A stretch of DNA of 27,169 nucleotides from Pseudomonadota bacterium (GTDB lineage: Bacteria > Pseudomonadota > Gammaproteobacteria > Burkholderiales > Burkholderiaceae_C), in NCBI GenBank assembly GCA_041178825.1, contig JBEGUP010000001.1, positions 1-27,169 of the forward strand, written 5' to 3'. Position numbers and translations under genes: made by a program. The notes beneath the pieces are model-generated. The model made no database searches. It saw nothing but the letters and a program-made list of their open reading frames with translations, and was not told where the DNA came from. Of this stretch, positions 2,586 through 27,169 are shown in pieces. Position 1 is the stretch's first letter. Each line of letters opens with the position of its first letter.

Positions 2586-3281
2586 TTACTTATTCACAGG
2601 AGACTGGGGATCCAACAAAAGCGCCATCACATGTTTAACTTGTTGTTCGGTCAAAATGCCAGCATCACCAAACCTAGGCATATTGCTACACAAGTTTACG
2701 GAATGTGTATTCCAAATCCGTGCCCATGTGTATTTGACGATAGCTTCTGAATCTTTAGAAGCAGCATCTTTAACGCCACGAATCGTGCCGTATTTCAACA
2801 GCGACGGTCCTTGATTTCCGAAACTAATTTCAGTGGGCGTCAACTGGTGACATGCATAGCAATTTGCACCATTGGGAGCACCTGCGACATCGCTGAATTG
2901 CAATCCACGTCCGTTTTGGGCAATTTTTTCACCTTCTTTCCAATCGCCGATATATTTCCCATCTTCAGGATACGGGATAGCAGCGTAAATGGCTTGCTCC
3001 ATCTTCTCACGTGTAGCTTTTGGCACTTCTACACCACTTGAAAGCGATTCAGAACAGACTTTTTGAATCTCTGTTTGATCAAGCCGATCAAGCTTAGCTA
3101 GACCCCGCTCAGCAAAGCTTGCTTTGATGGAGGCAAGCACTTCTGCGGCACTTGGCTTTTGCATTGTGGTTGATGCACAACTTGCAAGCAAAGCAATACC
3201 TGTCATTAAAGTAGATAATTTTGCTATTCTTTTAATAGCTGAATAGGCAACAAATACGCTCGTTACACGTTTATTTTTCAT
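2586..3281 (-). CDS. soxX: SoxX monoheme cytochrome c, probable lipoprotein
   Basis: CYACH heme motif, GNQGPSL, SNMPRFG, lipobox LLASC; lies between soxA and soxB. Confidence 0.95.
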   Translation of the reverse strand: MKNKRVTSVFVAYSAIKRIAKLSTLMTGIALLASCASTTMQKPSAAEVLASIKASFAERGLAKLDRLDQTEIQKVCSESLSSGVEVPKATREKMEQAIYAAIPYPEDGKYIGDWKEGEKIAQNGRGLQFSDVAGAPNGANCYACHQLTPTEISFGNQGPSLLKYGTIRGVKDAASKDSEAIVKYTWARIWNTHSVNLCSNMPRFGDAGILTEQQVKHVMALLLDPQSPVNK

Positions 3282-3284
3282 AAA
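3222..3284 (+). repeat. ~63-bp interspersed palindromic element, copy D (encodes the SoxX N-terminus)
   Basis: tgcTATTCTTTTAATAGCtgaatAGGCAACAAATACGCtcgtt; 32/40 ungapped identity (3225-3264) to the copy at 10011-10050. Confidence 0.85.
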
Positions 3285-3310
3285 TGTTCTCAGTATTACG
3301 GGGTTTGAAA

Positions 3311-4150
3311 TTATCTTTTTAGAGCAGGTGCTGCCATTTTTCCACCATTGGCGTTGACCCCCATGAAGGTAATCAAGTCAACCGAAGTTTGGCTCAAATA
3401 CTGGAGTTCAGGAAAACGCTGCTGCCTAAAACAATCGTATAAACGCCATTGCATAGTTCGCACTGCACCTTGGCTTACACGATACGCAGGCCATTGGCTA
3501 AAGGCTGCCTGTGCAGGACCGGGTTTGGTTAAGTTAGGCAAATCTTGTAATCGAATACGCTTACCATCTTCGCTGTGGCAACTAGCGCAGCTAAAGTCAA
3601 ACGGCCCGCCTTTAAAGTAAAACGCTTCCTTGCCTCGCGCGTAAGATGTTTTTTCTGCAATGTGGTTTTGCGGAACATTGATAACCATATCGCGTGATTC
3701 GTCATAGATATACGCGACCAAATCTTCAACAATAGAGGCTTTTTGACCCTCTCTACTGTAAACAGTGCCAGCGCTAAAATCTTTCTTATTTGCACCTTGC
3801 AATGTCACCATACAATGCACCAAGCGACTTTCTAAGTCCATAGTTTGATTAGTATCTGCAAAATACTTTGGCAAAGTGGTCACTGCTCCTTTGACTTTAC
3901 CTGCACCCAAACCTAAATCACATGCTTCCAAGCTTGCATTTTTCGGTCCTCGCTTGGTCTTCCAAAGAACTTCTCCTCTAGCAGCGTTCAGATCAGCCGG
4001 ATTGCCATCTTGCAAACTAGCGCGGTAATCATCAATCGCATCTTTAGCTGATTTTTGCTGTGCATTCGCGACATTACAAACAGCTGTTGCCATGATTAAG
4101 CTGACTACGGCAAGCGGTTTCAGATCTAAAAATCTTTTTTCAAAACTCAT
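3311..4150 (-). CDS. soxA: SoxA (monoheme type)
   Basis: Single CASCH motif, active-site RLYDCFRQ, SLEACD/RLVHCM cysteines, WPAYR. Start set at 4150 because GGAGA SD precedes it; the ORF track starts at 4162. Confidence 0.95.
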   Translation of the reverse strand: MSFEKRFLDLKPLAVVSLIMATAVCNVANAQQKSAKDAIDDYRASLQDGNPADLNAARGEVLWKTKRGPKNASLEACDLGLGAGKVKGAVTTLPKYFADTNQTMDLESRLVHCMVTLQGANKKDFSAGTVYSREGQKASIVEDLVAYIYDESRDMVINVPQNHIAEKTSYARGKEAFYFKGGPFDFSCASCHSEDGKRIRLQDLPNLTKPGPAQAAFSQWPAYRVSQGAVRTMQWRLYDCFRQQRFPELQYLSQTSVDLITFMGVNANGGKMAAPALKR

Positions 4151-4212
4151 TATTGTCTCCATTCGAATTGAATATTTTGTTTGTAGTTTTCCAACCTACG
4201 CACGAATACAAA

Positions 4213-4244
4213 AGCCAGTAATCTACACAAGTAGTTTACTGGCT
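4213..4244. other. Stem-loop in the soxZ-soxA intergenic region (no U-tract; probable mRNA-stabilising or attenuating hairpin)
   Basis: AGCCAGTAATCTAC-ACAA-GTAGTTTACTGGCT, 13/14 paired. Confidence 0.6.
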
Positions 4245-4270
4245 GCGTATTTAAATTTCACATTTCAAAC

Positions 4271-4582
4271 TCAGGAAATGGTCGCTTCGTCAGTTCGTTT
4301 GTCGCCAGTGTTATCAACCCAAGAAATCGCAATTTTTTCACCTGCTTTACCGCCTGTAAAAGTGAATTGAATAAACGGATTTTTAGAAACTGCAGGACCC
4401 CATTGGGCACTCATAACAGTTTTACCGTTATGCACAGCACTGATGGTTTGAATAAACAATGCTGGCACGACTTTACCAGCAGCATCTTTACGCAAACCTG
4501 TTTCCATTTCATGGCTAACTAAAACACGTACAGTCACTTTATCGCCAGTTGCAGCGGCACGAATGCGCATTGGATCACTCAT
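4271..4582 (-). CDS. soxZ: Sulfur carrier SoxZ
   Basis: HEMETGLRKD, ALFIQ, WGPAVSKNP, WVDNTG; directly downstream of soxY. Confidence 0.96.
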   Translation of the reverse strand: MSDPMRIRAAATGDKVTVRVLVSHEMETGLRKDAAGKVVPALFIQTISAVHNGKTVMSAQWGPAVSKNPFIQFTFTGGKAGEKIAISWVDNTGDKRTDEATIS

Positions 4583-4639
4583 CTTGAACTCCTAAATTTC
4601 TAATAGCCGAATACTTATTGACTTAATGCTTAATGCGAA

Positions 4640-5107
4640 TTATCCGCCACAGCCACCAAGAGTGACTTTGACTTCTTTAACTGCGTAGATAAATTTATCA
4701 CCCACTTTTGCAAGCGCATAAACGTTTGTTGACTGGCCCATCTTGACGTTGGTAGACATGTTTGCGTCTGTACCTGCAATGACATCAAAACCAGCAGTCA
4801 ATGCGGCGGGGTTCTTCTCAACGATCAAACCAAGCCAAGTTGTACCTGCAGCTGCACTTTGTGCGCCCAAGCGCACTACGTTACCGTTTTCCGCAATTTC
4901 TGGTGCGCTCAAAGTCACATCTTTACTCTCAGTAGCTGCGCTTGTGCCTCCCAACGCTTTCACCACATCAGCCAAATTTTTGGCTTCAAAAGCTGCTTTA
5001 TTCCAAGCTGTTTGCGCGGAGGCTATAGCAGGGAATAAACCTACACTTGCTGCTAATCCCAATGCAGCAGCACCAGATGTGCTTTGTACAAATTCACGAC
5101 GTTTCAT
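4640..5107 (-). CDS. soxY: Sulfur carrier SoxY
   Basis: Tat motif KRREF, APEIAENG, C-terminal VKVTLGGCGG swinging arm. Confidence 0.98.
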   Translation of the reverse strand: MKRREFVQSTSGAAALGLAASVGLFPAIASAQTAWNKAAFEAKNLADVVKALGGTSAATESKDVTLSAPEIAENGNVVRLGAQSAAAGTTWLGLIVEKNPAALTAGFDVIAGTDANMSTNVKMGQSTNVYALAKVGDKFIYAVKEVKVTLGGCGG

Positions 5108-5206
5108 AATTTACTCCTGATTTGAAATCTTCAAAAAACTTTTTACAACTCGCTAGACTTACCTGCATAAATTAACACATTTTTAGCTTCTACGTTGATA
5201 CCGATA

Positions 5207-6319
5207 TTACTTAACAGCACCTTGTGATATCCACAAAGCCACTTTTTTAGCATCCGCATCACTCAAACTTTGTGCGGGCATTGGCATTGAACCGTAAACA
5301 CCTGAACCACCGCTTTTAATTTTGCCCGTTAAATATGCTACAGCATCGGGCTTATTGCCTTGCTTAGCAACGATCTCCTTGAAGGAGGGGCCCACAATTT
5401 TGTTGTCAATGCCGTGGCAAGCAGAACATGCATTTTTACTCAAAATTCCAGAAACATCCGCGCTCTTAAGTGAGCCAGTTGCTTCTGAGGATTTTTCTGC
5501 GGTCTTAGTCACTGGTGCAGGTGTAGCCACCGCCTTTTTAACCTCCGCGCTCGAGTTTGCCGCTGGCTTGGTTGTATCAGCGCCCACTGAGGGTCCGAAA
5601 CCGCGCGTTTGCTCAGCCAAATTACCGTGCGCATTGCGTGCGTGCTCTGGTAACAAGCTAGCCACTTTGGCATCTGTTACACAATTAGCCATGCAACTAG
5701 AACCTTGTGTATCAGGTTTAGCGATGCCACCAAACTCTTTGCCTGGCCACATGGCATGCTTGGTCATCATGCCGTTGCGGTTAGGCAATTTGTTTTGTGT
5801 TTCTGCCATATTTTTATCACTCAAAGTGAAGTTATTTGGCACCACATTGGCGATGTTTAGCAAGTACGCGGTTACAGCATAAACCTCATCTGGCTTTAAC
5901 GATTTAGGCGCCGTCCATGGCATCGCACGGTTGATGTAGTCCCACAGCGTAGACAGTTGCGATACTTTCATCATCGTCGTACGCGTTGGCGTTGCTGCCT
6001 CTGGCATCAAACTAGCTACGCGGCCAGTTTCAACGTCTTTTTTGATGGTGTAACCAACCAAGGCGCTGAAAACTGTGTTGTTTTCACCAAAACTGCCATG
6101 ACAAGACGAGCATTGCGCCTCCCAAACTTTTTCTCCCATTGCCACACTACCTGCACCCTTAGGTAAACCTTTGAAGTCAGGGCGAACGTCAATATCCCAA
6201 GCGGCCACTTCATTAGCTGTAGCTGTACGACCAATGCCCTCAATTTTGCTACCTTGAGCAAAAACAGATAGTGAAGATAACGCTAGGACAGCGGCAGTAA
6301 ATTTACGATAACTGAACAT
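5207..6319 (-). CDS. soxD: SoxD cytochrome c subunit (two heme motifs)
   Basis: WDIDVRPD, CSSCH, WDYINRAMP, second domain CSACH..VGPSF; start overlaps the soxC end by 17 nt. Confidence 0.95.
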   Translation of the reverse strand: MFSYRKFTAAVLALSSLSVFAQGSKIEGIGRTATANEVAAWDIDVRPDFKGLPKGAGSVAMGEKVWEAQCSSCHGSFGENNTVFSALVGYTIKKDVETGRVASLMPEAATPTRTTMMKVSQLSTLWDYINRAMPWTAPKSLKPDEVYAVTAYLLNIANVVPNNFTLSDKNMAETQNKLPNRNGMMTKHAMWPGKEFGGIAKPDTQGSSCMANCVTDAKVASLLPEHARNAHGNLAEQTRGFGPSVGADTTKPAANSSAEVKKAVATPAPVTKTAEKSSEATGSLKSADVSGILSKNACSACHGIDNKIVGPSFKEIVAKQGNKPDAVAYLTGKIKSGGSGVYGSMPMPAQSLSDADAKKVALWISQGAVK

Positions 6320-7634
6320 TTTTCACCTCGCCAGATTCCTGCAACAACCAAGTTTGAATAGAGTTATTGTGATAAATGCTCCGCGTTCCTCGTACTTTTC
6401 TGTTTTCAGCGTATGTTGGCTGCACATGACCTGTTTCATCGGTAGCGCGGCTCATTAGCAATGCTGGCTTGCCGTCCCATGACCAATCCATGTTGAAGCG
6501 CGTCAGACACTTGGACATGACTTGACCCTCTAGTCGAGCTGCTTTCCAATTACGCCCACCATCGACCGATATGTCGACTTTTTTAATCTTTCCGCGACCG
6601 CTCCAAGCAAGTCCAGTTACATTCAAAAAGCCCTTATCGAGCAACACTTGACCTCCACTTGGCGTGGTAATCACAGATTTCACTTCTTGCGTGCTGCTGT
6701 ACTGGCGATGCATGCCACTAGGTAATAAGTCAATGTAGTGAATGGTTTCGTCTTTTGTGCCGTAGGCTTCGTCACCCAACTCGATGCGACGTAAGTACTT
6801 CACCCAGCTCACACCCTGGACACCGGGGACCACCAAGCGCAATGGATAGCCATTTTCTGGACGCAGCATTTCGCCATTCATACCGTAGGCGACCAGCACT
6901 TCATCATTCATGATGAGGCTCATGGGAATCGTACGCGTCATGCTAGACCCGTCGGCACCTTCTGCCAAAACAAACTTACCGCGTTTGAAATCTGCACCGC
7001 ACATTTCAAGCAACAGGCGCAGAGGCACACCCGTAAATTCACTGCAGCTGACCATGCCGTGCGTGTACTGCACCGTCGGTACAGCGGCGTTGCCCCACTC
7101 CATACCCGTATTCGCACCACATTCAATAAAGTGAAAACGACTAACAGATGGCAAACGCATCAAATCATCCATGGTGAAGACCATTGGCTTTTTGAGCATC
7201 TTTTCATCGCTACCATTCACCATCAAACGGTGTTTATCCGGCTCAATATCCCACCAGCCTTGGTGGTGGCGCTCAAAATGCAAACCACTGGGCGTCACAA
7301 TACCAAACAAACCTTGCAAAGGCGCAAAACTAACGCCAGAAGCGCTCACCGCCGTTAAGCCAGGGCTTTCACGGCGCTGTAAGTTTTTTTCGTAAATACT
7401 CGGCACACCATAACCACGAGCTGCAACGCCCTGCCCCAAACCCTTGGTGTGAGCAGGTAGGTTAACGATGTTTGGATCGTCTTTTGAAGACTGCGCACGC
7501 GCAGCAGTTGCACCGGCCATAGCTGCGGCAAACGCACCAGCCATGAAACCTCGTCTACCCGCATAAACCGATTTGATTTGCTCACTACCGAGAAAGCCCT
7601 CGGGAGCGGCTTGAATGAAGCGATTGTTTCTCAT
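6303..7634 (-). CDS. soxC: SoxC molybdopterin sulfane dehydrogenase
   Basis: Tat-like RRGF, TPSGLHFERHH, FIECGAN (Mo-ligating Cys), LRPENGYPLRLVVPG, GLAWSGRG. Confidence 0.97.
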   Translation of the reverse strand: MRNNRFIQAAPEGFLGSEQIKSVYAGRRGFMAGAFAAAMAGATAARAQSSKDDPNIVNLPAHTKGLGQGVAARGYGVPSIYEKNLQRRESPGLTAVSASGVSFAPLQGLFGIVTPSGLHFERHHQGWWDIEPDKHRLMVNGSDEKMLKKPMVFTMDDLMRLPSVSRFHFIECGANTGMEWGNAAVPTVQYTHGMVSCSEFTGVPLRLLLEMCGADFKRGKFVLAEGADGSSMTRTIPMSLIMNDEVLVAYGMNGEMLRPENGYPLRLVVPGVQGVSWVKYLRRIELGDEAYGTKDETIHYIDLLPSGMHRQYSSTQEVKSVITTPSGGQVLLDKGFLNVTGLAWSGRGKIKKVDISVDGGRNWKAARLEGQVMSKCLTRFNMDWSWDGKPALLMSRATDETGHVQPTYAENRKVRGTRSIYHNNSIQTWLLQESGEVKNVQLS

Positions 7635-7647
7635 GGCTTGCTACTTA

Positions 7648-7974
7648 TTATTTAGCGCCAGCCAAAATCCACTTAGCGAGTTTTGTGGCATCTGCATCAG
7701 GTAACGCCGCTTGTGCAGGCATCGGGATTGGCCCGTATTTGCCAGAACCGCCGGCTTTGATGCTAGCTGCCAACTTGGCAACGTAGTCTTTTTCTTTTGC
7801 GTACTTCTCAGCAACAGCTTGATAAGCGGGACCTACCAACTTTTTATCCACTGCATGGCAGGCCATACAAGCATTCTTTTGTGCCAATGCTAAATCAGCA
7901 TGTGCTGGCATCGTAGAAGCGAAAACCGCGATTGAACTGACTACTAATTTCAAAATGACTGATTTGTATTGCAT
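7648..7974 (-). CDS. Class I cytochrome c (c551/c552-like), first gene of the sox operon
   Basis: Signal peptide ending AHA-D, CMACH, VGPAY, GPIPMP (Met ligand). Confidence 0.92.
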   Translation of the reverse strand: MQYKSVILKLVVSSIAVFASTMPAHADLALAQKNACMACHAVDKKLVGPAYQAVAEKYAKEKDYVAKLAASIKAGGSGKYGPIPMPAQAALPDADATKLAKWILAGAK

Positions 7975-7997
7975 GATAAATTTATATACTTAAGTTT

Positions 7998-8032
7998 ATA
8001 TATTAATATATTCTAATTGATATATAGAATAT
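7998..8032. promoter_or_regulatory. AT-rich palindromes upstream of the sox operon; candidate ArsR/SoxR-type operator
   Basis: Perfect 14-bp palindrome ATATATTAATATAT (7998-8011) overlapping ATATTCTA-N9-TAGAATAT (8008-8032). The region is so AT-rich that chance is possible. Confidence 0.35.
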
Positions 8033-8099
8033 GCATATATTAAATCGCGTATTTGCATACTGACAATCAGTATTTACCCTATTCTTGCAGGCTTGCAAC

Positions 8100-8132
8100 A
8101 AAAAAAGAGGCGTAGCAAAATGCTAACGCCTC
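8100..8132 (-). terminator. Rho-independent terminator of fccB
   Basis: Minus strand GAGGCGTTAGCA-TTT-TGCTACGCCTC followed by T7, about 30 nt after the fccB stop. Confidence 0.85.
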
Positions 8133-8163
8133 CTCTGTCAATGTCAAAAAACCGAATGACGAT

Positions 8164-9471
8164 TTAGGCCAAAGTATCAGCCCAAATGTTTTGCGCCCAG
8201 CTCTCGGCGTAAGCACCTTCCAACATAGTCACTTCTGGCTTCAAATCTATTGAAGACACGCCGCCAGAGCCGGCAACTGTCTTAAACGTCTTCTCAGCTG
8301 CTACATACTCGTGCACGCTGGCGACGTGGATGCAGTTTTTCGCATCGACCATGCTGTAGCAGGTGTTGGTCAACATCGGGTTAGGGTTCACTTCCCAACC
8401 ATTGAGCTGCGCTACGATGGCCGCCGCAGCCACTTTGGCTTGCGCATTTGCCATGTGTCCGCTCTTAGGCATGCCTGGCGCAATTTGGATGGAGTCACCC
8501 AAAACATGCACGTCTTTGGCAGCTGTTGACTCGAATGTGAGGTAGTTCACACCACACCAGCGACCATTGGCCATGTTGTTCAAGCCAGAGTTAACTGCAA
8601 TCAAACCTGCACGCATGTTTGGCAAAGCGTTGATGACGTTTGCTTTCGCATCTTCTTGGATTTCAAACTTGATAGTGCCAGTTTTGGCATCAATAGCCGT
8701 CACCTTGTGGTCACCACGGTACTCGATCATGCCTTTGTACTCATTGGCCCACACTTTTTTGAACAATGGGCCTTTGGATGTAACGTCTGGGTTGCCGTCC
8801 AAAATCAAAATTTTGCTCTTTGGTTTTGCTACTTTAAAGTAAGACGCAATCTGGCTGGCACGTTCGTACGGGCCGGGTGGGCAGCGGTATGGCGCAACTG
8901 GGATGGTAATAGCGTAAGTGCCACCGTCAGGCATGGCTTCGAGCTGTTTACGCAAAGTGGCCGTTTCTGCGCCCGCTTTCCAAGCTTGCACGATTTGACC
9001 ACTCGCATTGGCTGCAGCCAAGCCTTCGATGCTGCTCATCATCAAATCGATACCTGGGGAGACAACCAACTTGTCATACGCGATACTGCCACCGCTTGCT
9101 AATGAGACAGTTTTCTTAGCCGAGTCAATCTTACTGACCATGTCTTTAACCATGGTCACACCGTGCTTTTTAGACAAATGCTCGTAAGAGCTGGTGATAT
9201 CAGCCATCGATTTATGACCGCCTAAGACCATGTTGGACACAGGGCAAGAGATGAACGAAGCGTTTGGCTCAATCAACACCACGTCAATTTTGTACTGTGA
9301 CAGCACGCGGATGTATTTGGCTGCTGTAGCGCCACCGAAGCCACCGCCCACGATGACGACTTTCGCCTTGGATGGCATAGAAGTTGTGGCGCAACCAGCC
9401 AAGCCGAGCAAACTAAGTGCTGCTGCTGATTGCAGGATTTGACGACGTTGAAGATTATTTGTAGTTGTCAT
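8164..9471 (-). CDS. fccB: Flavocytochrome c sulfide dehydrogenase flavoprotein (FccB/SoxF)
   Basis: Tat QRRQ, VIVGGGFGG FAD motif, SCPVSN, YRCPPGPYERAS, KSGHMAN, NTCYS. Start moved to 9471 (MTTTNNLQRR) because the track start at 9516 overlaps fccA. Confidence 0.9.
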   Translation of the reverse strand: MTTTNNLQRRQILQSAAALSLLGLAGCATTSMPSKAKVVIVGGGFGGATAAKYIRVLSQYKIDVVLIEPNASFISCPVSNMVLGGHKSMADITSSYEHLSKKHGVTMVKDMVSKIDSAKKTVSLASGGSIAYDKLVVSPGIDLMMSSIEGLAAANASGQIVQAWKAGAETATLRKQLEAMPDGGTYAITIPVAPYRCPPGPYERASQIASYFKVAKPKSKILILDGNPDVTSKGPLFKKVWANEYKGMIEYRGDHKVTAIDAKTGTIKFEIQEDAKANVINALPNMRAGLIAVNSGLNNMANGRWCGVNYLTFESTAAKDVHVLGDSIQIAPGMPKSGHMANAQAKVAAAAIVAQLNGWEVNPNPMLTNTCYSMVDAKNCIHVASVHEYVAAEKTFKTVAGSGGVSSIDLKPEVTMLEGAYAESWAQNIWADTLA

Positions 9472-9484
9472 GTCAAATCCGTCC

Positions 9485-9820
9485 TTATTTCTTTTGAGCC
9501 GCAAAATAGTTGGCAATCATGGCGACTTGCGCATCGCTGTAGCCCTTGCTGAGCTGGTGCATCACTGTGGCAGGGCGTGTACCGTCTTTGAAGGCTTTCA
9601 TTTGCAAAATAATATTGGCAGCGGGCATACCGGCTAAAGTAACTACTGCAGATCCATTCGTCGCTCTGCCCTGCGTACCATGACAAGTCGCGCAAGTAGC
9701 TGAAACACCCGCTACATACAATTCATCTTTGCTTTGCGCTGAGGCTGTAACCCCTGCAAATGCAGCCAAGTTAGCTACCAAAATCGTAGCCAACTGAATT
9801 TTTATTCGTTTATTCAACAT
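9485..9820 (-). CDS. Monoheme cytochrome c subunit of flavocytochrome c (FccA-like)
   Basis: CATCHG, LAG, KAFKDG..ATVMHQL..GYSD; GGAGG SD; immediately upstream of fccB. Confidence 0.9.
   Translation of the reverse strand: MLNKRIKIQLATILVANLAAFAGVTASAQSKDELYVAGVSATCATCHGTQGRATNGSAVVTLAGMPAANIILQMKAFKDGTRPATVMHQLSKGYSDAQVAMIANYFAAQKK
9729..9791 (-). repeat. Degenerate copy G of the ~63-bp element, inside the FccA signal-peptide coding region
   Basis: Perfect GCTAC-N7-GTAGC (9790-9774), then TGGCTGCATTTGCAGGGGTTACA; 23/40 ungapped identity to copy C in the same codon phase. Confidence 0.5.
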
Positions 9821-9891: not shown

Positions 9892-10007
9892 CCTATAGAC
9901 CAGTTTAGTACGAGTGCATTTTGTACGTAAAAACCCTAGAACTGACGTGAATTTACTTACACAAAATTGACAATACAACTTCAACGTGTTGGTTGAAAAT
10001 ATCAATT

Positions 10008-10070
10008 TACTATTATTTTAATAGCTGTTCAGGCAATAAATACGCCGGCTAGAGCCATAAAATGCATAAA
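10008..10070 (+). repeat. ~63-bp element, copy A (intergenic)
   Basis: tacTATTATTTTAATAGCtgttcAGGCAATAAATACGCCGGCTAG; 21/22 identity to 12594-12615 in the core. Confidence 0.9.
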
Positions 10071-10103
10071 AAAATCGGGTGCTTTATACAAGCTACCCGA
10101 TTT
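10068..10103 (-). terminator. Rho-independent terminator of the Bug gene
   Basis: Minus strand AAATCGGGTAGCTT-GTAT-AAAGCACCCGAT followed by T7. Confidence 0.85.
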
Positions 10104-10142
10104 CTGTTTTGCTAACTTAGCAAAATTATTACTGCGCCGCTT

Positions 10143-11111
10143 TTACTGCGCTGTTATACCCGCCGTTTTAATCACTTTGGTCCAGCGGGGAATTTCATTT
10201 GCTACAAACGCTGTGTAGGCTTTTGAGCCCTGAGCTGGAACCACAAAACCTTGGGATTCCAAGCGCTGTCTGATCGCTGGAGAATTCATCACTTGAACCA
10301 TGGCTGCTTCTAATTTTTCAACCACAGCGGGCGGTGTGCCCTTTTGAATTGACAAGCCCGACCAAGACAGAGATTCAAAGCCTGGATAGCCTGACTCAGC
10401 AATAGACGGCACATCTGGATACAAAGGATTGCGCTTAACCGTAGTTACTGCCAGTGGACGAAGTTTGCCCGCTTTAACGTGCTGCAATGCAACGTCTTGG
10501 TTGATGAACATGATTTTGATTGTGCCGCCCAACATATCAGTCATCATTGGGCCGCCTCCGCGATAGGGAATGCCAGTCAAAAATACCCCAGCAGTTTGCT
10601 TAAACAACTCCATCGCCATATGTCCTGATGAAGCATGGGTGAATCCATAGTCTAATTTACCGGGATTCGCCTTTGCATAAACGACCAAGTCTTTCAAAGT
10701 TTTGAACGGCAAACTTGGGTGAACCAGCAGTACATTGGGGCCAGTATGAACTTGAGTCAGGTGAATAAAATCTGTATTCGAGTTGTACTTCAAATTCGGA
10801 TCTAAGCCATGCGCCACTGCGTTTTGACCTACCCCAGTTTGGATAATCGTGTAACCGTCGGCTGGAGCTTTGCTTGCCCGCTCAGTGCCCACCACGCCAC
10901 CAGCACCACCTACGTTTTCAACCAGCACAGGTTGCTTTAAAATTTTGGCTAACTCATCATTCACCATACGTCCCATCACATCACTGGTGCCGCCGGGTGG
11001 AAATGGCACGATCAACTTGATCGGCTTGCTTGGGTATTCTTGCGCCAAAGCGCTCAGTGCAATCAAGCCAACCGCTGCTGCACTTACCAGTTTTAACCAT
11101 GATTTTTTCAT
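10143..11111 (-). CDS. Bug/TctC-family tripartite tricarboxylate transporter substrate-binding protein
   Basis: YPSKPIKLIVPFPPGGTSD, VENVGGAGG, APADGYT, IPYRGGGP, LRPLAVT, DVPSIAESGYPG. Confidence 0.95.
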   Translation of the reverse strand: MKKSWLKLVSAAAVGLIALSALAQEYPSKPIKLIVPFPPGGTSDVMGRMVNDELAKILKQPVLVENVGGAGGVVGTERASKAPADGYTIIQTGVGQNAVAHGLDPNLKYNSNTDFIHLTQVHTGPNVLLVHPSLPFKTLKDLVVYAKANPGKLDYGFTHASSGHMAMELFKQTAGVFLTGIPYRGGGPMMTDMLGGTIKIMFINQDVALQHVKAGKLRPLAVTTVKRNPLYPDVPSIAESGYPGFESLSWSGLSIQKGTPPAVVEKLEAAMVQVMNSPAIRQRLESQGFVVPAQGSKAYTAFVANEIPRWTKVIKTAGITAQ

Positions 11112-11170: not shown

Positions 11171-12436
11171 CTAAAACCGTGGCTTGACGGTTGACCAATC
11201 GGGTCTGAACTTTTGCATCTGCGTCACATCGTTACGGGTGCGAATGCGGCAGTTCAAAAATGCTTGGTGCAGCTCCGCCAGCTTGGCTTGGTCTAACTCT
11301 ACACCTAAACCCGGCTTGTCCGTCAAATGCACACAACCGCCCACGATAGGCACTTTGCCACCGACCAAAACTTCGTCGCTCTGCCACGGGTAATGGGTGT
11401 CACACGCATAAGTCAAATGATGCACCGAAGCCGCCAAATGCGTCATCGCCATCAAACTGATGCCCAAGTGCGAGTTCGAATGCATGGACAAGCCCATACC
11501 AAACGCCTGACAAGTCCGCGCCAAAGCCTGCGTCGCCCGCAAACCGCCCCAATAGTGATGGTCAGACAGCACAATTTGCACGGAATTCAATTCAACACTG
11601 CGCTTCAAATGGTCCCAAGACGTGACCACCATGTTCGTCGCCTGCAGCAACCCGGTCGCTTTGTAAACTTCGGACATACCGTCTAAGCCCGGCGTTGGGT
11701 CTTCGTAATATTCCAAATCATTTGCCAGCCGCTTGGCGATGCGAATACTGGTTGGAATCGACCAATTGCCGTTTGGGTCAATCCGCAGCTGGTGATTCGG
11801 GAAAGCGACTTTGAGCGCTTTGATCGCATCTGCCTCCTCATCCGGCGGAAAAACACCAGCTTTCAGCTTGATGCTCTCAAAGCCGTATTGGTCAATCATC
11901 TTCTTGGCTTGCGCGACGATTTGCGCGGGGTTCACCGCTTCGCCATATGGGTCGGGTGCATATTCGGGGTCAACACTAGCGTCCCATTTGTAGAACAAAT
12001 AAGCCGAATACGCGACTTTGTTGCGCACTGCGCCGCCCAATAATTCCACCAGCGGGATATTCAAGCTACGGGCTTGCAGGTCCAAAAACGCAACTTCAAA
12101 GCCTGAAAACACGCTGCTCGTCAAGTTGTCACCCATAGAACCAGGCGCGAGCTCCATTTCAACATGCGCGGTTTTGGTTAATTTAGATTCCGCAATCACC
12201 TTGGCCAGCAAACCATTCAAGTCAAAAGCCGATAAACCTACCAAACTGTCTTTCACCCGCGTCAACAAGTCCAATACAGGTGCGTCGCCATAGGTTTTAC
12301 CTAAGCCAACCATGCCGTTTGCACCCACAACCTCGATGATAGAGCGCAGCCCAAACGGCTCATGCACCCCAGCAGCGTTCAATAAAGCAGGGTCTTTGAT
12401 AGCAATGGGCGTGACGCGAACGGCGGAAATCTTCAT
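11171..12436 (-). CDS. Glucarate dehydratase-family enolase-superfamily enzyme (substrate uncertain)
   Basis: KLK motif (SIKLKAG), DPNGNW, YYEDP, ATNM, MHSNSHLG, CDTHYPW. Confidence 0.85.
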   Translation of the reverse strand: MKISAVRVTPIAIKDPALLNAAGVHEPFGLRSIIEVVGANGMVGLGKTYGDAPVLDLLTRVKDSLVGLSAFDLNGLLAKVIAESKLTKTAHVEMELAPGSMGDNLTSSVFSGFEVAFLDLQARSLNIPLVELLGGAVRNKVAYSAYLFYKWDASVDPEYAPDPYGEAVNPAQIVAQAKKMIDQYGFESIKLKAGVFPPDEEADAIKALKVAFPNHQLRIDPNGNWSIPTSIRIAKRLANDLEYYEDPTPGLDGMSEVYKATGLLQATNMVVTSWDHLKRSVELNSVQIVLSDHHYWGGLRATQALARTCQAFGMGLSMHSNSHLGISLMAMTHLAASVHHLTYACDTHYPWQSDEVLVGGKVPIVGGCVHLTDKPGLGVELDQAKLAELHQAFLNCRIRTRNDVTQMQKFRPDWSTVKPRF

Positions 12437-12486
12437 GAGAGCAAATTCAATCTTTTTAGAAAATCTAGAAAATACCGCTGATTATA

Positions 12487-12506
12487 GTCATCGGTTGTCT
12501 GATGAC
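12487..12506. promoter_or_regulatory. Inverted repeat upstream of the dehydratase; candidate operator
   Basis: GTCATCGG-TTGT-CTGATGAC (7/8 paired), 50-70 nt upstream of the ATG. Confidence 0.35.
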
Positions 12507-12570
12507 CCGTATTTTGCTGATTTACAGAAAAATTGTCAAGCTAAAACGCCGTGTGTAGAGTGAGTTTTTT

Positions 12571-12633
12571 TGCTATATTTTTAACAGCAATTTAGGCAAT
12601 AAATACGCTGGCTAGGTGCATATTTATCATCTA
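12571..12633 (+). repeat. ~63-bp element, copy B (intergenic)
   Basis: tgcTATATTTTTAACAGCaatttAGGCAATAAATACGCTGGCTAG; 33/40 ungapped identity to copy A. Confidence 0.9.
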
Positions 12634-12653
12634 AATTTAGTGACTTTAAAACC

Positions 12654-13997
12654 TTAATTGATTTTAAACTTCAAAGCCAGCGCTTTAGAAGCCACGCACT
12701 TGCCCTGCACTTGCCCGCCCTCTACGCCAAAGCGGAAGTGGATGCCTGCGTACAAACGCGACAGCGCTGCCTCATTGGCAGCCGCGCTGAAGTTAGTGAA
12801 GGTACGCGGACCCCAGCCACGGTCGTTGTGGGTGTTGTCAGTGAATGCCGTGTTTGCACCAAAGATTTGATTTAATACACCTGCTGCTGCACTAGATTGA
12901 ATAGAGTGGCCAGAAGGATATTCTGGGAACGGTGGCGTTGGCATCAACGGAGGTACCCAATTGCTGTCAAATGAACCCTGGACATAGCTCACGGGGCGCA
13001 ACACGTTGAGCGCATATTTGGTGGCCCAACCTGCAATAAAAGCATCTGCCATCGCAATATTCAAGCGAGCCAGTGTTTGACCGGCATCAGCCAAGCTGGC
13101 TTTGCGGGTTTTCAGCAAATCGTTGGCTATAAACAGCCAGTGGCCAGCTGGCGTGGGTGTTTTACCTGGATCATCCGCCCAATACAAGGCAAATTGGCGT
13201 TGCTCTTGGGTGGCTGCCTTGCTGATGGTGTAAACCTCTTGCGCACTTTTGTAAAAAACAGAGCTGGCGTCCTCCGAATACTCAGGCGGCGGCGGCGCTG
13301 GGCAGTCTTTTACCGATTTCAAAGCAAAGGGGCGATTTTCACCCCAATACGGCAACAGCGGTTTGGCAAACGCCGGCGGTGTGGCCGTCCAAAGCCCTGC
13401 CCCACTGGGCGGCACGTAGTTGGCACGGCTGCGACGCAGCGGTCCCCAAGCTTCATGGCCGCCGTCGGTACGTGCCCAGGTCATGATCGCCATGGCCATG
13501 AGCTTGCCGAAGGAAGTAGAACGGTTGATGATTTCGGGGGTGTAGGTGTTGGGGTCAAAGTCTTGACCATATTTCAACGGCAACAAGCGCTCAAGCTGGT
13601 CAATACGGCCTTTGTTTTCCGCCGTAGCGTTGCTGAACATCATGCGCGTCATGGTCGCCATTGAGGCATTTGCCACCGTCGGCCAGTGCAAAGACTCATC
13701 GGGTTGCGCCGCAGGTAAGGAGTTGAGCTCATTCAACTGCCCAGCCATGCTGGTATAGCCAGGCATACCTGGCACGATGGACTCATACAACGCCAACCCC
13801 AAATACCCAAAAGCACGCGATGCTACAGGCGGGCTAAAACCAGGGGTTTGCTGGGTTAGCGACAGCGCTAGGGACATCCACTCGGTCGCGACAGCGTTGC
13901 TATAGGTGTCTGCTGGGCGAGTTAAATTTTGCGATTGCGCTATTGAAAATGAAGCAAATAACGTAATTAAAACGCCGGATAAAAAACGTTTTATCAT
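12654..13997 (-). CDS. Vanadium-dependent haloperoxidase / PAP2-superfamily enzyme with Sec signal peptide
   Basis: K-x6-RP (KYALNVLRP), PPFPEYPSGHS, SRLYAGIH, FSPPVASR, FWAD-like YWADD. Start set at 13997 (MIKRFLSG), 1 nt after the upstream stop; the track start at 14129 overlaps the upstream gene. Confidence 0.88.
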   Translation of the reverse strand: MIKRFLSGVLITLFASFSIAQSQNLTRPADTYSNAVATEWMSLALSLTQQTPGFSPPVASRAFGYLGLALYESIVPGMPGYTSMAGQLNELNSLPAAQPDESLHWPTVANASMATMTRMMFSNATAENKGRIDQLERLLPLKYGQDFDPNTYTPEIINRSTSFGKLMAMAIMTWARTDGGHEAWGPLRRSRANYVPPSGAGLWTATPPAFAKPLLPYWGENRPFALKSVKDCPAPPPPEYSEDASSVFYKSAQEVYTISKAATQEQRQFALYWADDPGKTPTPAGHWLFIANDLLKTRKASLADAGQTLARLNIAMADAFIAGWATKYALNVLRPVSYVQGSFDSNWVPPLMPTPPFPEYPSGHSIQSSAAAGVLNQIFGANTAFTDNTHNDRGWGPRTFTNFSAAANEAALSRLYAGIHFRFGVEGGQVQGKCVASKALALKFKIN

Positions 13998-14000
13998 ATT
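13938..14000 (+). repeat. Degenerate copy F of the ~63-bp element, coinciding with the haloperoxidase start and signal peptide
   Basis: 36/63 ungapped identity to copy B; ATG at the same offset as in copies A, B and D; peptide LSGVLIT versus LAGVFIA in copy A. Confidence 0.5.
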
Positions 14001-15690: not shown

Positions 15691-16681
15691 TCACCCAAGC
15701 TCCGGTTTTTTCTGAGGCAAACAAGGCATCAATGACCTTCATATTCAAAATCGCGTCTTCAACGCCATAGGGCAAACTAATTTCGCCGCGTACGACTTTT
15801 GAAAACGCATCACCCTGCAAGCCATACATATTGCAAGCTGGCATGTTGTGCTTTTGCATAGACGAGCCGTTCAAAGTACTGCCATCATCCACAAAATAAT
15901 CAGTTTCACCACCCAACGGTGCATTGAACGGAATTTGAACTTCAATACGCTTTTTAGTTCCCACAACTTGCACGCGCTGGTGTGGTACTGATTGCGTTGA
16001 AACGGTGAAATCTAAACGTTTGCCATCGCCAAAATCAAGCAAAGCGCTGACGGTGCGATCCACTTTGAAGTCTGGATCGCGGTCAACCAAGGCGATCACG
16101 CGTTTGGGTTCAGCATCAAACAAAAACCGCCCAATCACAATCGGGTAGCAGCCGATATCGTACAGCGCACCGCCGCCGATTTCATACTTGTTGCGGATGT
16201 TGTTGGTGTCGCGATTGAAATACGAAAAGAACGCTTGCACGGTTCGCACATCACCCAATTCACCACTGCGCACACGTTCGCGCACTTGTAGCCACTGCGG
16301 GTGAAAGCGCACCATGAAAGCTTCCATGATATGCACTTTGTCCGCCACTTCACGCAGCTGCGCTGCTTCGTTGGCATTGATGGCAAACGGCTTTTCGCAC
16401 AAAACGTGTTTACCAGCACGAGCTGCCTGCAGCGTTAACGGTACGTGCAGATCGTTCGGCAAAGGGTTGTAAATGGCTTCAATCTCACGGTCAGCCAACA
16501 AGGCCTCATACGAACCATAAGCCTTAGGAATGCCCAGCTTAGCTGCCCATTCATCTGCTTTGCCAGGCGCACGCGAGGCGATGGCTCGCACATCGCAAAA
16601 CTCGCTTTGCTGCATAGCAGGGATAACTTTTTCCCAACCAATTTTGGCGGTACTAAGAATACCCCATACTACTTTTTTCAT
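15683..16681 (-). CDS. Gfo/Idh/MocA-family oxidoreductase (possible sugar dehydrogenase)
   Basis: WGILSTAKI, YNPLPNDLH, KHVLCEKP, EAFMVRFHP, GGGALYDIGCY. Confidence 0.92.
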   Translation of the reverse strand: MKKVVWGILSTAKIGWEKVIPAMQQSEFCDVRAIASRAPGKADEWAAKLGIPKAYGSYEALLADREIEAIYNPLPNDLHVPLTLQAARAGKHVLCEKPFAINANEAAQLREVADKVHIMEAFMVRFHPQWLQVRERVRSGELGDVRTVQAFFSYFNRDTNNIRNKYEIGGGALYDIGCYPIVIGRFLFDAEPKRVIALVDRDPDFKVDRTVSALLDFGDGKRLDFTVSTQSVPHQRVQVVGTKKRIEVQIPFNAPLGGETDYFVDDGSTLNGSSMQKHNMPACNMYGLQGDAFSKVVRGEISLPYGVEDAILNMKVIDALFASEKTGAWVNV

Positions 16682-16729
16682 AGCTATAGACCCAATAAAT
16701 ACGAGAACTACGTACCAATTTAATCAATA
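16667..16729 (+). repeat. ~63-bp element, copy E (overlaps the Gfo start codon and RBS region)
   Basis: tacTACTTTTTTCATAGCtatagACCCAATAAATACGagaact; 28/40 ungapped identity to copy A. Confidence 0.7.
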
Positions 16730-16753
16730 AATTTAAATGTTTTAAAAATGCAT

Positions 16754-18070
16754 TTAAATGAACGAATTCAACAAGTTTTCTAGGTTTTCTTGACGACCAG
16801 AAACTGGGCGCGTATCAGTGTTGCTCTGCAACACACGTGCCGCCACCGCATCCAAGCTTAACTTGCCTGCCATGACGTCACCACCAAAGCTTGACTTCCA
16901 GCCCGCATAACGGTCTTGACGTGCTTTCTCAAAGCGACCATCTTGAATCATTTTTTCGGCAATCAACAAAGCACGCGCTGTCACGTCCATGCCACCAATG
17001 TGGCCATAAAACATGTCTTCAGGTTCAATCGATTGACGACGCACTTTGCTGTCAAAGTTCACACCACCGGTGGTAAAACCACCTGCTTGCAGGATTTGAT
17101 ACATCACCAAGGCGGTTTCTGGAATGCTATTTGGGAACTGGTCTGTGTCCCATTGGCACTGCATGTCGCCACGGTTCATATCAATAGAGCCAAAAAGTCC
17201 CATGTCAATGGAAGTTGCAATTTCATGCTCAAAGCTGTGTCCAGCCAATGTGGCGTGGTTGGCTTCGATGTTGACTTTGACTTCTTTCTCCAAACCATGT
17301 TTGAGCAAGAAGCCGTACACAGTAGCAACGTCAAAATCATACTGGTGCTTGGTCGGTTCACGTGGTTTTGGTTCAAGCAAAATCGCACCTTTGAAGCCGA
17401 TTTTGTGTTTGTAGTCCACAACCATATTCAAGAATCGACCCATTTGGTCAAGCTCTTGCCCCATTTGCGTGTTTAACAGAGTTTCATACCCTTCGCGGCC
17501 GCCCCACAACACATAGTTTTCACCACCAAGCTTGAGCGTTGCATCCATTGCTTCTTTGACTTGTAGCGCACCGAGTGCAAAGATCTCTGGATCAGGATTG
17601 GTTGAAGCGCCAGACATAAAGCGGCGGTGGCTGAACAAGTTAGCCGTGCCCCACAAAAGCTTCATGCCCGTTTCTTGCTGCTTAGCGGCCAACACATCAA
17701 CCATCGCGTGCAGATTGTTGACACTGTCACGCGGGGTTGCGCCTTCTGGTGCAACGTCGCGGTCATGGAAGCAATAGTAAGGTGCACCTAGTTTTTGAAA
17801 AAATTCAAACGCAGCGTCTGCTTTGGCTTTCGCCGCAGTCATGGGGTCTGCAATGTGCTGCCAAGGGCGCTCAAATGTGCCGTCGTAGCCAAACGGGTCA
17901 AAACCGTTCCAGCAATAGCTGTGCCAGTAGCAAACAGCAAAACGCAAATGGTCTTCCATGCGTTTACCCAAAACCATGCGGTCTTTGTCATACCATTTGA
18001 AGGCGAGAGGATTTTTAGATTCAGCGCCCTCAAATTTGATGGGGGCGACAGCGTTGAAATACGAGCTCAT
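16754..18070 (-). CDS. xylA: Xylose isomerase (class II)
   Basis: [62 protein letters not shown]. Confidence 0.98.
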
Positions 18071-22983: not shown

Positions 22984-23012
22984 CGTGAACCTACTTCAGC
23001 TAACCGAATGGT

Positions 23013-24032: not shown

Positions 24033-24069
24033 TCTTTATCTCCAGTTAATAAACCCCGAGGGGCGTTAA

Positions 24070-24177: not shown

Positions 24178-24211
24178 GATATGGTTACTTAAAAGAATTT
24201 ATAGTCGATGT

Positions 24212-25189: not shown

Positions 25190-25205
25190 ATTTCTTAAAA
25201 AATGC

Positions 25206-25682
25206 TCAAATCACGCCTACGATGAGTGCCGCGCAAGCCACAAAAGTCAAGCGCAGCCGTAACGGCAAATACCATTTGGGCATACTCACCGATTTAACCA
25301 ATCGCTTGTCTTGCCAAAAGTGAATCAAAAATCCCGCTACCAACAACAAGCAAGCATGCTTAGGTGAAATAGCATATTTAACTAAAAGTGCGATCCAGGC
25401 CACCAATGCTGGCACTACGCTCCACACAAAACAATGGGTACGTTGCTGCTCAGACATATCGCTTTGGCTCATTGCAAAGCCCCAGTGCAGCGCGCCCACA
25501 AAGCTCAAAATTACCGCGCCATAAACCAAAAGTGCATCACCCCACAAGATGCTGCGGCTGCTGTCAACCCACACTGCAGCAGCCAAAGTCAAAAATGGCA
25601 ACAAGCCCCCATAGCCCAACCATTTCACGATTGGCGGGATAATTGTTTTGAAAGTATCAACAGGGTTGGATAATTTAGTCAT
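25206..25682 (-). CDS. DUF3429-family membrane protein
   Basis: WLGYGGLLPF, YGAVILSFVGALHWGFA, WSVVPALVAW, WYLPLRLRLT. Confidence 0.85.
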   Translation of the reverse strand: MTKLSNPVDTFKTIIPPIVKWLGYGGLLPFLTLAAAVWVDSSRSILWGDALLVYGAVILSFVGALHWGFAMSQSDMSEQQRTHCFVWSVVPALVAWIALLVKYAISPKHACLLLVAGFLIHFWQDKRLVKSVSMPKWYLPLRLRLTFVACAALIVGVI

Positions 25683-25714
25683 CTAATAATAGTTACCAAA
25701 AAAAGAGGTCTGCA

Positions 25715-25915
25715 ATGGGTGGAGAAGATGAGCGCTGCTGCGGCACGGGTCACTGCATGATAAATGCTGACGGACGCTGCTGGTGCGGCCAGCAATGGGA
25801 TGGCGAGAAAATGTGCCAGCCTAAACAAAAGGCGGAATCGAAGTCTGACTTGACTTCAAAGAGCGATGAATCCGTCACATCCGCTTATATTGTGTCGGAC
25901 AATAAGCCCTCTTGA
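25715..25915 (+). CDS. Small Cys-rich hypothetical protein (66 aa)
   Basis: AGAGG SD just upstream of the ATG; CCGTGHC-x7-CWC-x9-C (6 Cys + His) in the first 34 aa; overlaps the DUF2805 3' end by 41 nt. Confidence 0.55.
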   Translation: MGGEDERCCGTGHCMINADGRCWCGQQWDGEKMCQPKQKAESKSDLTSKSDESVTSAYIVSDNKPS

Positions 25916-26141
25916 CCCCTTCTGATCGCAGCGCTGCATGCTTGGTGGTGCGGCTACTCATCCGCTTACGCCACATTCTGAAGGAGCTGGCTTTCATGTT
26001 GGTGCGCATGAAATTGATCACCGCAGATTCGTTCAGCCCATAGGTGCGCTCTATCGCTTCAAACGGCGTGCGGTCTTCCCATGCCATTTCTATGATTCTG
26101 GAGGCATCGCCGGGGGTGAAGATGGGTTCGGGTTTTGACAT
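25875..26141 (-). CDS. TIGR03643/DUF2805-family protein
   Basis: RIIEMAWEDRTPFEAIE, SSFRMWRKRM, TKH, RAYCPTQYK. ATG at 26141 preferred over the TTG at 26147. Confidence 0.88.
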   Translation of the reverse strand: MSKPEPIFTPGDASRIIEMAWEDRTPFEAIERTYGLNESAVINFMRTNMKASSFRMWRKRMSSRTTKHAALRSEGVKRAYCPTQYKRM

Positions 26142-26219
26142 ACTCAAATTGTATAAAAAGCGGGTACATGGTGTCGCACAGGTTAAAAAGACCTTGCAAC
26201 TTTATGGCAACATATCACT

Positions 26220-27169
26220 ATGCAAAAAATTCAGTCTTCACATTCAACCGCCCCCTTCCTCCCGCAAATCACGCTTTACCGCAGTTGGCTAAGCGCGCAG
26301 CGTGGCTTGAAGTTTGACTCTTACGACGCGCTTTGGCAGTGGTCAACGACTGATTTAGACGCGTTTTGGCAGAGTATTTGGGATTATTTTGACCTGAAAT
26401 CGTCCACGCCCTACTCCGCCGTATGTGACCGTTCTGCCAAAGTTGATGGTATTTCGCGGATGATCGATGTGAAATGGTTCACTGGCGCGACGGGCAACTA
26501 CGCGCAGCAGGTGTTTCGGCATGTTGAAGCCGCAGATTCTGTAGGTTTCCCAGCCATCATTAGCCACAATGAGAAAAGCTTGGGCAAGCAGCCAGCAAAA
26601 GAAATGACTTGGCCGCAGCTCAAACAACAAGTCGCCTCCCTCGCCCTGCACCTGCAAGCACAGGGTGTGCAACCGGGGGACAGGGTTGCGGCGTATTTGC
26701 CGAACATTCCAGAGGCGATGGTGGCGTTTTTGGCGACGGTGAGCATTGGCGGCGTGTGGAGCATTTGTGCACCGGATATGGGGACGAACGCCGTTTTAGA
26801 CCGCTTCAAACAAATTGAACCCAAGGTGCTGATTGCCTGCGACGGTGTTACTTTTGGCGGCAAAGACTTTGACCGCCTAGCCGTGATCGCCGAGCTATGC
26901 GCCGCACTGCCCAGCGTAAAGCATGTGATTTTGCAAGACAATTTGGGGACTTTACAGCCTTACACTCAAGCAACTTCAAATGCTAAAAACGCTATAAATA
27001 TAATAGCTTCTCAGGCAGTATTTACAAAGGCTACATGTCAAAATGATGCTAAAACTGCAGCTTTTGAGCCACTTTGGTTGCCGTTTGACCACCCACTGTG
27101 GATTGTCTATTCCAGCGGCACGACAGGACTACCCAAACCGATTGTTCACAGCCACGGCGGCATCGTCAT
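26220..27169 (+). CDS. Acetoacetate-CoA ligase (partial; runs off the right edge)
   Basis: Not in the ORF track; hand translation is open from ATG at 26220 to the end: YDALWQWSTTDLDAFWQSIWDYF, GDRVAAYLPNIPE, PDMGTNAVLDRFKQIEPKVLI, PFDHPLWIVYSSGTTGLPKPIVHSHGG. Confidence 0.93.
   Translation, partial: MQKIQSSHSTAPFLPQITLYRSWLSAQRGLKFDSYDALWQWSTTDLDAFWQSIWDYFDLKSSTPYSAVCDRSAKVDGISRMIDVKWFTGATGNYAQQVFRHVEAADSVGFPAIISHNEKSLGKQPAKEMTWPQLKQQVASLALHLQAQGVQPGDRVAAYLPNIPEAMVAFLATVSIGGVWSICAPDMGTNAVLDRFKQIEPKVLIACDGVTFGGKDFDRLAVIAELCAALPSVKHVILQDNLGTLQPYTQATSNAKNAINIIASQAVFTKATCQNDAKTAAFEPLWLPFDHPLWIVYSSGTTGLPKPIVHSHGGIV
26990..27052 (+). repeat. ~63-bp element, copy C (in frame inside the acetoacetate-CoA ligase)
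   Basis: cgcTATAAATATAATAGCttctcAGGCAGTATTTACaaaGGCTA; 29/40 ungapped identity to copy A; translates AINIIASQAVFTKATCQND. Confidence 0.8.

Follow-up and report, generated by a model that had tools for sequence, protein, structure and literature searches.

How does one short palindromic sequence come to stand again and again in a bacterial genome, between genes as well as inside them, and in what form is it read there? The question is raised by a 27,169-nucleotide (nt) stretch of DNA (contig JBEGUP010000001.1 of assembly GCA_041178825.1; hereafter the window), which is the entire contig C1 of a freshwater Comamonadaceae genome (G000; other G-numbers denote comparison genomes) assembled to 2.17 Mb in 351 contigs, with 72% completeness and a GC content of ~50%. 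An earlier note on the window had described a ~63-bp interspersed palindromic element in five clear and two degenerate copies, tolerated in protein-coding sequence. Using an nhmmer profile seeded by an ungapped alignment of the five clear copies and then rebuilt from genome-wide matches, 453 matches were found in G000 at E<=0.01, one per 4.8 kb, against 0 copies at this threshold in a second-order Markov shuffle of the genome, where the single match had E=1.1; the earlier note had staked its case on copies exceeding shuffled controls, and they do so by 453 to 0. Given the shuffle control and the presence of copies in cytoplasmic enzymes, neither paralogy among signal peptides nor chance composition can explain the similarity. 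The element is a true miniature interspersed element, although its length had been put too high: the conserved core is 57 nt, TTTGCTAT-N7-ATAGC followed by TGCTNAGGCARYAAATACGCYGGCTANAGGCATATTT, with a sharp edge after ATTT and a weaker A/T-tract tail beyond. The answer that we favour, and hold to be somewhat more probable than any doubt we have of it, is that this is an interspersed family of Comamonadaceae, similar to repetitive extragenic palindromes (REPs) and to Rickettsia palindromic elements (RPEs), which derives from insertion and is maintained at the DNA level, with a REP-associated tyrosine transposase (RAYT) as the leading candidate partner.

The element is not confined to one species or one genus. 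When a strict 31-nt pattern allowing <=3 mismatches was used, each of the 18 other species in this GTDB genus gave between 10 and 440 occurrences and none of 22 genomes of other genera gave any; the reversed control pattern gave 0 everywhere. The picture of a genus-specific element, low in copy number in G017, turned out to be an artefact of this strict pattern and was overturned by profile searches, which found 97 copies in G015 and 71 in G017 in 400-kb samples, and by a covariance model of the element, run without filters for weak copies, which found members in 32 out of 80 further genera of the same bacterial family, with per-genome counts of up to at least 69. The related repeats that the earlier note mentioned for Comamonadaceae genomes do exist. 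In G000, on gene positions from a home-made gene caller that limits these location counts, 178 copies are intergenic, 180 lie well inside genes (90 sense, 90 antisense), 42 fall within 30 codons of the start of the longest open reading frame (ORF) and 53 at gene 3' ends; ~40-60% of copies overlap coding sequence. Of the 148 intergenic copies with called genes on both sides, 59 lie between convergent genes, although only 16% of intergenic gaps are of this kind. A copy is found at the stop codon of 6.3% of all genes.

One sign that the element is kept as DNA comes from glmU, in which 19 element codons were compared with the remaining gene across 15 species. Amino-acid identity is 60% in the element and 87% in the rest of the gene, whereas third-position identity is 83% as against 56% and synonymous-site identity, a measurement made on glmU alone, is 84% as against 52%; with higher synonymous and lower amino-acid identity, conservation here tracks the element and not the codons. 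A second sign is a change of consensus between species. At model position 21, 83% of G000 copies carry T and 91% of those in G017 carry A; 13 of 19 orthologous pairs show T in G000 and A in G017. Because orthologous pairs retain their locus-specific loop bases (0.63 identity vs 0.51 shuffled for G017; 0.79 vs 0.50 for G015), the copies were not wholly replaced and one position has shifted in parallel. On the basis of one gene and 19 pairs, this parallel shift suggests either a recognition factor that co-evolves with the element or conversion over short tracts. A stronger form of the same idea, which we regard as somewhat unlikely, is that the element is a genome-wide DNA signal recognised by a co-evolving protein (a domesticated RAYT or another), with ~450 sites kept by selection or directed conversion; if this were true, proteins, essential enzymes and signal peptides among them, would have had to take shape around a code that resides in the DNA.

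Copies inside genes show how such a sequence can be accommodated. The host genes are genuine and include dapF, glmU, dapE, trmB, the gene of the CCA-adding enzyme and a ubiH-like gene, among others. Among copies well inside genes, 65 of the 90 in sense orientation are read in phase 0 (TTT GCT ATN..) and 73 of the 90 antisense copies share one phase, which bears out the non-random coding phase noticed in the window. The bias goes beyond the avoidance of stop codons and reflects tolerable peptides, because a second sense frame, Cys-rich and fully open in the consensus, is used by only 13 of the 90 copies. Both preferred frames need C or G at model position 25, where T gives TAG or TAA; this position is C in coding copies and mostly T in intergenic ones. 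The peptides of the two preferred frames are rich in Ala, Ile and Thr, and gene-internal copies thus survive in frames that yield harmless Ala/Ile/Thr-rich peptides.

These copies also add residues to their hosts. Judged by alignment to solved structures of homologues, the five coding copies compared coincide with 17 extra residues in GlmU, 19-20 in DapE, ~22 in the CCA-adding enzyme, ~21 in acetoacetyl-CoA synthetase (copy E of the window, relative to Streptomyces AacS, PDB 4wd1) and ~33 around the element in DapF. Similarly, the n-region of a SoxX-like protein encoded in the window has ~14 more residues than its G002 and G017 orthologues, whose signal peptides lack the segment. As far as sequence alignment can tell, every copy that it can test is an insertion. 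A within-Comamonadaceae alignment had presented the acetoacetyl-CoA synthetase copy as a non-insertion; this was rejected because the outgroups carry the same ancient copy and comparison with Streptomyces AacS reveals the extra residues. The insert in GlmU is found in 16 of 16 genomes of the genus and in 0 of 10 from other families, and an AlphaFold2 model of the GlmU N-domain (predicted local distance difference test score, 83.4) predicts that it extends a helix, lengthening helix 62-77. Phase bias and extra residues together uphold the in-frame tolerance within proteins that the earlier note had likened to that of RPEs. Some hosts carry more than one element's worth of sequence. In DapF (C233:65-1024, locus L101) a second decayed copy or additional flanking DNA may be present, since ~33 residues exceed one element; the gene of an AMP-binding ligase (C100:6169-7824, L109) has two copies, one in each orientation, and that of the CCA-adding enzyme (C147:1679-3055, L104) has one after the DLTINS motif and another near the C-terminus.

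The extra residues bear directly on an alternative that we consider unlikely, namely that the element is a long genomic recognition signal (uptake-like, a self mark, or a site for a nucleoid or replication protein) that was largely written in by substitution, is maintained by drive or selection and stands next to RAYT genes by coincidence. Such a signal would account for the conservation of nucleotides above protein in glmU, the parallel base change at orthologous loci, the roughly equal use of both orientations, the density of about one copy per 4.8 kb, the A/T tracts that flank the core with ~10-11 bp phasing and the fact that RAYT flanking is not general. It would not lead one to expect that 5/5 coding copies compared with distant solved homologues coincide with ~17-33 extra residues, or that the SoxX-like protein has ~14 more than its orthologues in the genus; moreover, ~57 nt far exceeds the known uptake sequences, and the six head-to-head doublets that share a palindrome resemble REP dimers.

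The age of the copies was assessed by mapping flanks or host proteins onto the G015 and G017 samples. The element is present at the same G015 site for 38 of 39 G000 copies and, in the other direction, G000 has the element at the site of 42 out of 46 copies from G015 and 18 out of 20 from G017, so that lineage-specific copies number 1/39, 4/46 and 2/20, respectively. Of the coding copies, 17/17 are common to G015, and in G017 the element is detectable at 16 of 23 sites, with 0 of 23 empty. The site of copy E matches the profile in loci of Ramlibacter, Rhodoferax, Curvibacter and Polaromonas, and high-GC genera keep the AT-rich boxes GCTATnnATTTnATAGC ... GGCTACAGCC in the acetoacetyl-CoA synthetase gene, a copy that, by this comparison of sequences, is older than the genus. 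The orthologous positions show that the element spread before the genus diversified and that nearly all copies predate the radiation. Current mobility is not supported, as nearly every copy is ancient and fixed at an orthologous site.

This persistence is also what makes it quite improbable that the family is an ordinary selfish burst of a MITE (a transposable element of the miniature inverted-repeat kind), or of an RPE-like element, that is now decaying neutrally and whose copies resemble each other through recent spread or a slow clock. The two ends of the core do resemble imperfect 8-nt terminal inverted repeats (AAATTTGC / GCATATTT), copies form a continuum from near-consensus to degenerate and a few (1/39, 4/46, 2/20) are specific to one lineage, all in keeping with a MITE. 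On the other hand, the species are near synonymous saturation (52%) and yet the synonymous sites of the element are 84% identical, a parallel T-to-A change at 13/19 loci is not expected of neutral decay, and the AT-rich boxes last in high-GC genera.

An RNA structure is not supported by the sequence. The arms of the palindrome are only 5 bp long and AT-rich; they lengthen to 14 bp in the head-to-head doublets, of which there are 6 among the 453 copies. Rfam gave 0 matches in the window at the gathering score and chance-level E values of 0.27 to 6 around copy B, three of four folds were no better than those of shuffled sequences (z -0.1 to -0.8), RNAalifold found only 3 pairs, and pair counts over the 453 copies showed no clear covariation in the 5-bp stem, G/A and T/C variants being uncompensated. 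Single-sequence folds, RNAalifold and pair counts thus reveal no stable or covarying RNA structure and, given the poor folds, the lack of an Rfam match and the stem that does not covary, the element looks as though it is read as a DNA sequence and not as a stable hairpin. A structured RNA element acting post-transcriptionally (a small RNA, terminator, attenuator or leader peptide) is very improbable: intergenic copies do cluster after genes or in convergent gaps (59/148), RNA-library contigs pile up on copies B and C, and some copies contain, on their reverse strand, an ATG and then a stop codon, but no Rfam family matches, 3/4 folds are no better than shuffles, RNAalifold finds only 3 pairs, covariation in the stem is lacking, copies split 90:90 between the two orientations within host genes and the ATG is unconserved. 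A promoter-like reading of the reverse strand (TTTACT-N17-AATAAT), made by eye only, was also discarded, as the -10 box would sit in the variable loop. In genome-wide flanks (model positions -13 to +40), A/T tracts lie on both sides of the core at ~10-11 bp spacing, the pattern expected for intrinsically bent DNA.

If the element is read as DNA, a protein partner may be sought among the transposases. G000 encodes one Y1-transposase (PF01797), a protein of 233 aa at C24:86-787 that scores 80.2 bits against the NCBIfam model REP_Tyr_transpos NF047646 (cut-off 80) and has an HFH (HUH-type) motif as well as a Tyr in YLDLNPV. In 8 genomes the RAYT stop codon is followed at a distance of 11-14 nt by a copy of the element; an upstream copy is present in 3 of these and in G002. 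The clade with the shifted consensus (G017, G012 and G002) is also the clade with the most divergent RAYT. Our support for a link between RAYT and element is tentative and stays somewhat short of even. The earlier note had proposed a search for a cognate transposase: a single-copy candidate was indeed found, although its flanking copies are confined to one subclade, G002 and G089. Three further observations concern the RAYT gene. The proteins of G017, G012 and G002 (L159-L161) are 58-64% identical to that of G000, below some other genera (up to 75%), and are either fast-evolving or replaced. G019, a 99% complete genome of the same family, has neither a detectable RAYT nor the element and is the only high-quality genome sampled that lacks a RAYT. 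Finally, a palindrome, CCAATTAAAATTGG, lies just 5' of the RAYT start (C24:60-85, L154; and L158:625-650), is kept in G000 and G008 and may serve this gene as an operator or as a structure for ribosome binding.

Put together, the favoured reading of an insertion-derived family maintained as DNA runs as follows. The element spread before the genus diversified, mainly to sites just downstream of genes and also into ~200 genes, and gene-internal copies survived in the two frames with harmless peptides. A RAYT, as an HUH tyrosine transposase, would have driven this spread through single-stranded intermediates; and either a sequence-specific factor would still recognise the double- or single-stranded DNA of the element, or short-tract conversion would keep the copies alike. 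Several points weigh against this reading. Searches of orthologous sites gave no clean empty site or target duplication, the presence/absence differences of 84, 74, 63 and 42 nt being unclean, and, with no excision product either, transposition itself is not demonstrated. The hairpin is unstable, the stem does not covary, and the GTAG tag of classical REPs is not fixed in position and has a variable completing base (33-48%). As to RAYT, the eight flanked genomes all belong to one subclade and so count as one event; in G010, G012 and G017 the gene has no flanking copy; of 14 further genera with the element, G089 alone has a copy near the gene and the remaining 13 have none; the background of 6.3% of genes with a copy near the stop codon weakens the adjacency; and 74 of 80 other genera have a RAYT, as against only 32 of 80 with the element. 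The home-made gene calls and the single gene behind the synonymous-site figures count on the same side, as does the export heuristic described next.

Copies at the beginning of genes have a distinct fate. Of those fully inside genes, 32 fall in the first 30 codons (20.4 expected) and 15 in the first 10 (6.6 expected), as the earlier note had led one to look for. By a simple heuristic that can be set off by the element's own hydrophobic peptide, 24 of the 32 N-terminal hosts look exported, compared with a background of 27% and with 12% of the hosts of deeper copies. Some near-consensus N-terminal copies may actually sit upstream of the true start, and among N-terminal copies the start calls of longest ORFs were seen to be pulled upstream into the element. 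There are clear hosts, for example a TctC receptor (MDMFKLK-NTIKIVAALAMIMPAATVF-AQAYPNKP), a periplasmic cyclophilin and, in the window, a cytochrome c, a PAP2/haloperoxidase and the SoxX-like protein. It is thus shown in part that N-terminal copies form the hydrophobic core of signal peptides, and the contribution to signal peptides proposed for the window extends with TctC and cyclophilin to the rest of the genome.

The window itself illustrates most of these situations. Its five clear copies, all on the + strand, were each matched by a profile rebuilt mainly from copies outside the window (E 4e-16 to 1e-3). Copy A (3220..3276; 39.7 bits, E 8e-10, match 3221-3275) is antisense, in the preferred frame, within the gene of the SoxX-like lipoprotein of 231 aa (2586..3281, -; from the ORF list, with G010, G002 and G017 orthologues located by tblastn), where it codes for n-region residues 2-20 of the signal peptide, KNKRVTSVFVAYSAIKRIA; the start ATG, 3279-3281, lies 3 nt past the element profile. 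Copy B (10006..10062; 59.9 bits, E 4e-16, match 10007-10059) is intergenic and near consensus, with the element also at the orthologous site of G015, G006 and G016, and copy C (12569..12625; 49.7 bits, E 6e-13, match 12570-12624) is likewise intergenic, with the element at the orthologous site of G015, G006 and G009. Copy D (16665..16721) is weak (20 bits, E 1e-3, match 16667-16720; 33.1 bits with the covariance model) and mostly non-coding, spanning the 5' untranslated region and first five codons of an oxidoreductase gene, 15683-16681 (-). Copy E (26988..27044; 36 bits, E 1e-8, match 26990-27041) is read in the sense frame as NAINIIASQAVFTKATCQN in the acetoacetyl-CoA synthetase gene, 26220-27167 (+).

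Taken alone in the window, the two degenerate copies score only marginally; they are counted as real, decayed copies because orthologous positions in sister species score higher with the covariance model. The first (9737..9793, -; 14.9 bits, E 1e-3) is in the sense frame and, from translation and a Pfam match, codes for signal-peptide residues 10-28 (LATILVANLAAFAGVTASA) of a 111-aa c-type cytochrome (ORF 9485-9820, -); the corresponding positions in G015, G006, G016 and G009 score 16.5-19.7 bits. The second (13936..13992, +; 11.7 bits, E 0.02) is antisense and codes for most of the signal peptide, MIKRFLSGVLITLFASFSIAQ, of a PAP2/haloperoxidase-like protein (gene 12654-13997, -; translation and Pfam PAP2), and at its orthologous site the model gives 33.6 bits for G016 and 19.8 for G015. 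Smaller claims about the window copies fared unevenly. The reverse-strand mini-ORFs of the two intergenic copies, MHFMALAGVFIA and MINMHLASVFIA, each closed by a stop codon, read as described. The CAT at a fixed offset is present in four window copies (model positions 60-62), whereas genome-wide the information falls to ~0 after position 57-60. Donation of start codons is not a general trait, because the ATG is not conserved in the genome-wide consensus and the SoxX and haloperoxidase start codons lie 3 nt outside the profile.

Other features of the window lie around these copies. Directly 3' of copy B, at 10063-10105, is a separate terminator-like hairpin (CGGGT...ACCCG, then a T run), so the element itself is not the terminator at this site. 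Positions 1-9820 hold a sulfur-oxidation (sox-like) cluster with cytochromes and 12654-18070 a sugar/oxidoreductase operon that includes the exported PAP2/haloperoxidase-like protein. Contigs of public metagenome assemblies cover copies B and C (9915-10415, 12420-12920) 4 to 40 times as deeply as the flanks, with a ~40-fold pile-up on copy B and chimeric joins between the two copies, and contigs from the public runs, which include freshwater and riverine metagenomes, contained no excision joint. As contigs pile up and form chimeric joins on its copies, the repeat is likely a cause of the fragmentation of these metagenome-assembled genomes and, in practical terms, it confuses read mapping in them.

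From a broader point of view, the family would extend the Rickettsia type of repeat within proteins to abundant free-living freshwater bacteria, and it would represent a rare case in which a DNA-level constraint visibly overrides codon-level evolution in essential genes, as well as a way in which selfish DNA, or DNA that serves as a signal, turns into signal peptides and extended helices. A family-wide domesticated RAYT transposase would be a directly testable candidate partner.

In the literature searched, coverage of which was incomplete, no published description of the element and no report linking RAYT or REPIN to Comamonadaceae was found. The BRE repeat occurs in Polaromonas and other Comamonadaceae and sometimes inside coding sequence (Hot et al. 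2011, PMC3110155), but identity with it is ruled out, since BRE is a GC-rich tandem repeat of ~90 bp (TTTTTTTTTGGCCGCGGGCCGCCC...) and the BRE sequences of the supplement are GC-rich and unrelated to the element (PMC3110155). Comparison with REP/REPIN-RAYT systems (Nunvar 2010; Bertels & Rainey 2011, PMC3116915; Di Nocera 2013, PMC3733652; 10.1101/2021.07.10.451892) reveals several likenesses: short copies in their hundreds, lying for the most part immediately downstream of genes, some dimers arranged head to head, and a single-copy, vertically inherited RAYT with adjoining copies in part of the genus. Long-term persistence at orthologous sites is a further likeness, REP/REPIN-RAYT systems being vertically inherited and long-lived (10.1101/2021.07.10.451892), and some REPs in other phyla are intragenic (PMC3733652). 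In contrast to REPs, the element has a 5-bp stem with an unstable hairpin, a core of 57 nt as against 20-40 nt and no GTAG or CGTC tag in a fixed place; its dimers are few (6/453) and not the main form, ~40-60% of copies overlap coding sequence, and RAYT flanking is missing in most genomes examined.

RPEs, for their part, reportedly insert in frame into many unrelated functional housekeeping genes, an account that goes back to Ogata et al. in 2000. The element resembles them in its in-frame insertion in housekeeping genes, in insertions common to related species and in a peptide that is apparently structurally tolerated. The hosts differ, that of RPEs being obligate intracellular and that of the element a free-living freshwater betaproteobacterium; the element is also shorter, its DNA is better conserved than its peptide, and its copies at N-termini serve as signal peptides. 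Similarity in sequence to RPEs was not noticed, in the course of an analysis that included no formal comparison. The uptake sequences of Pasteurellaceae (uptake signal sequences, USS) and Neisseriaceae (DNA uptake sequences, DUS) are 9-12 nt long. The element shares with them a high density, the use of both orientations, tolerated frames within genes and a lineage-specific consensus ('dialects') at orthologous sites, and it differs in its length of 57 nt and in coding copies that coincide with extra residues, which points to insertion over substitution. Together, these comparisons place the element among repeats of the known REP and RPE kinds, from which it stands out by its intragenic share, the conservation of DNA over protein, the parallel base change and its use in signal peptides.

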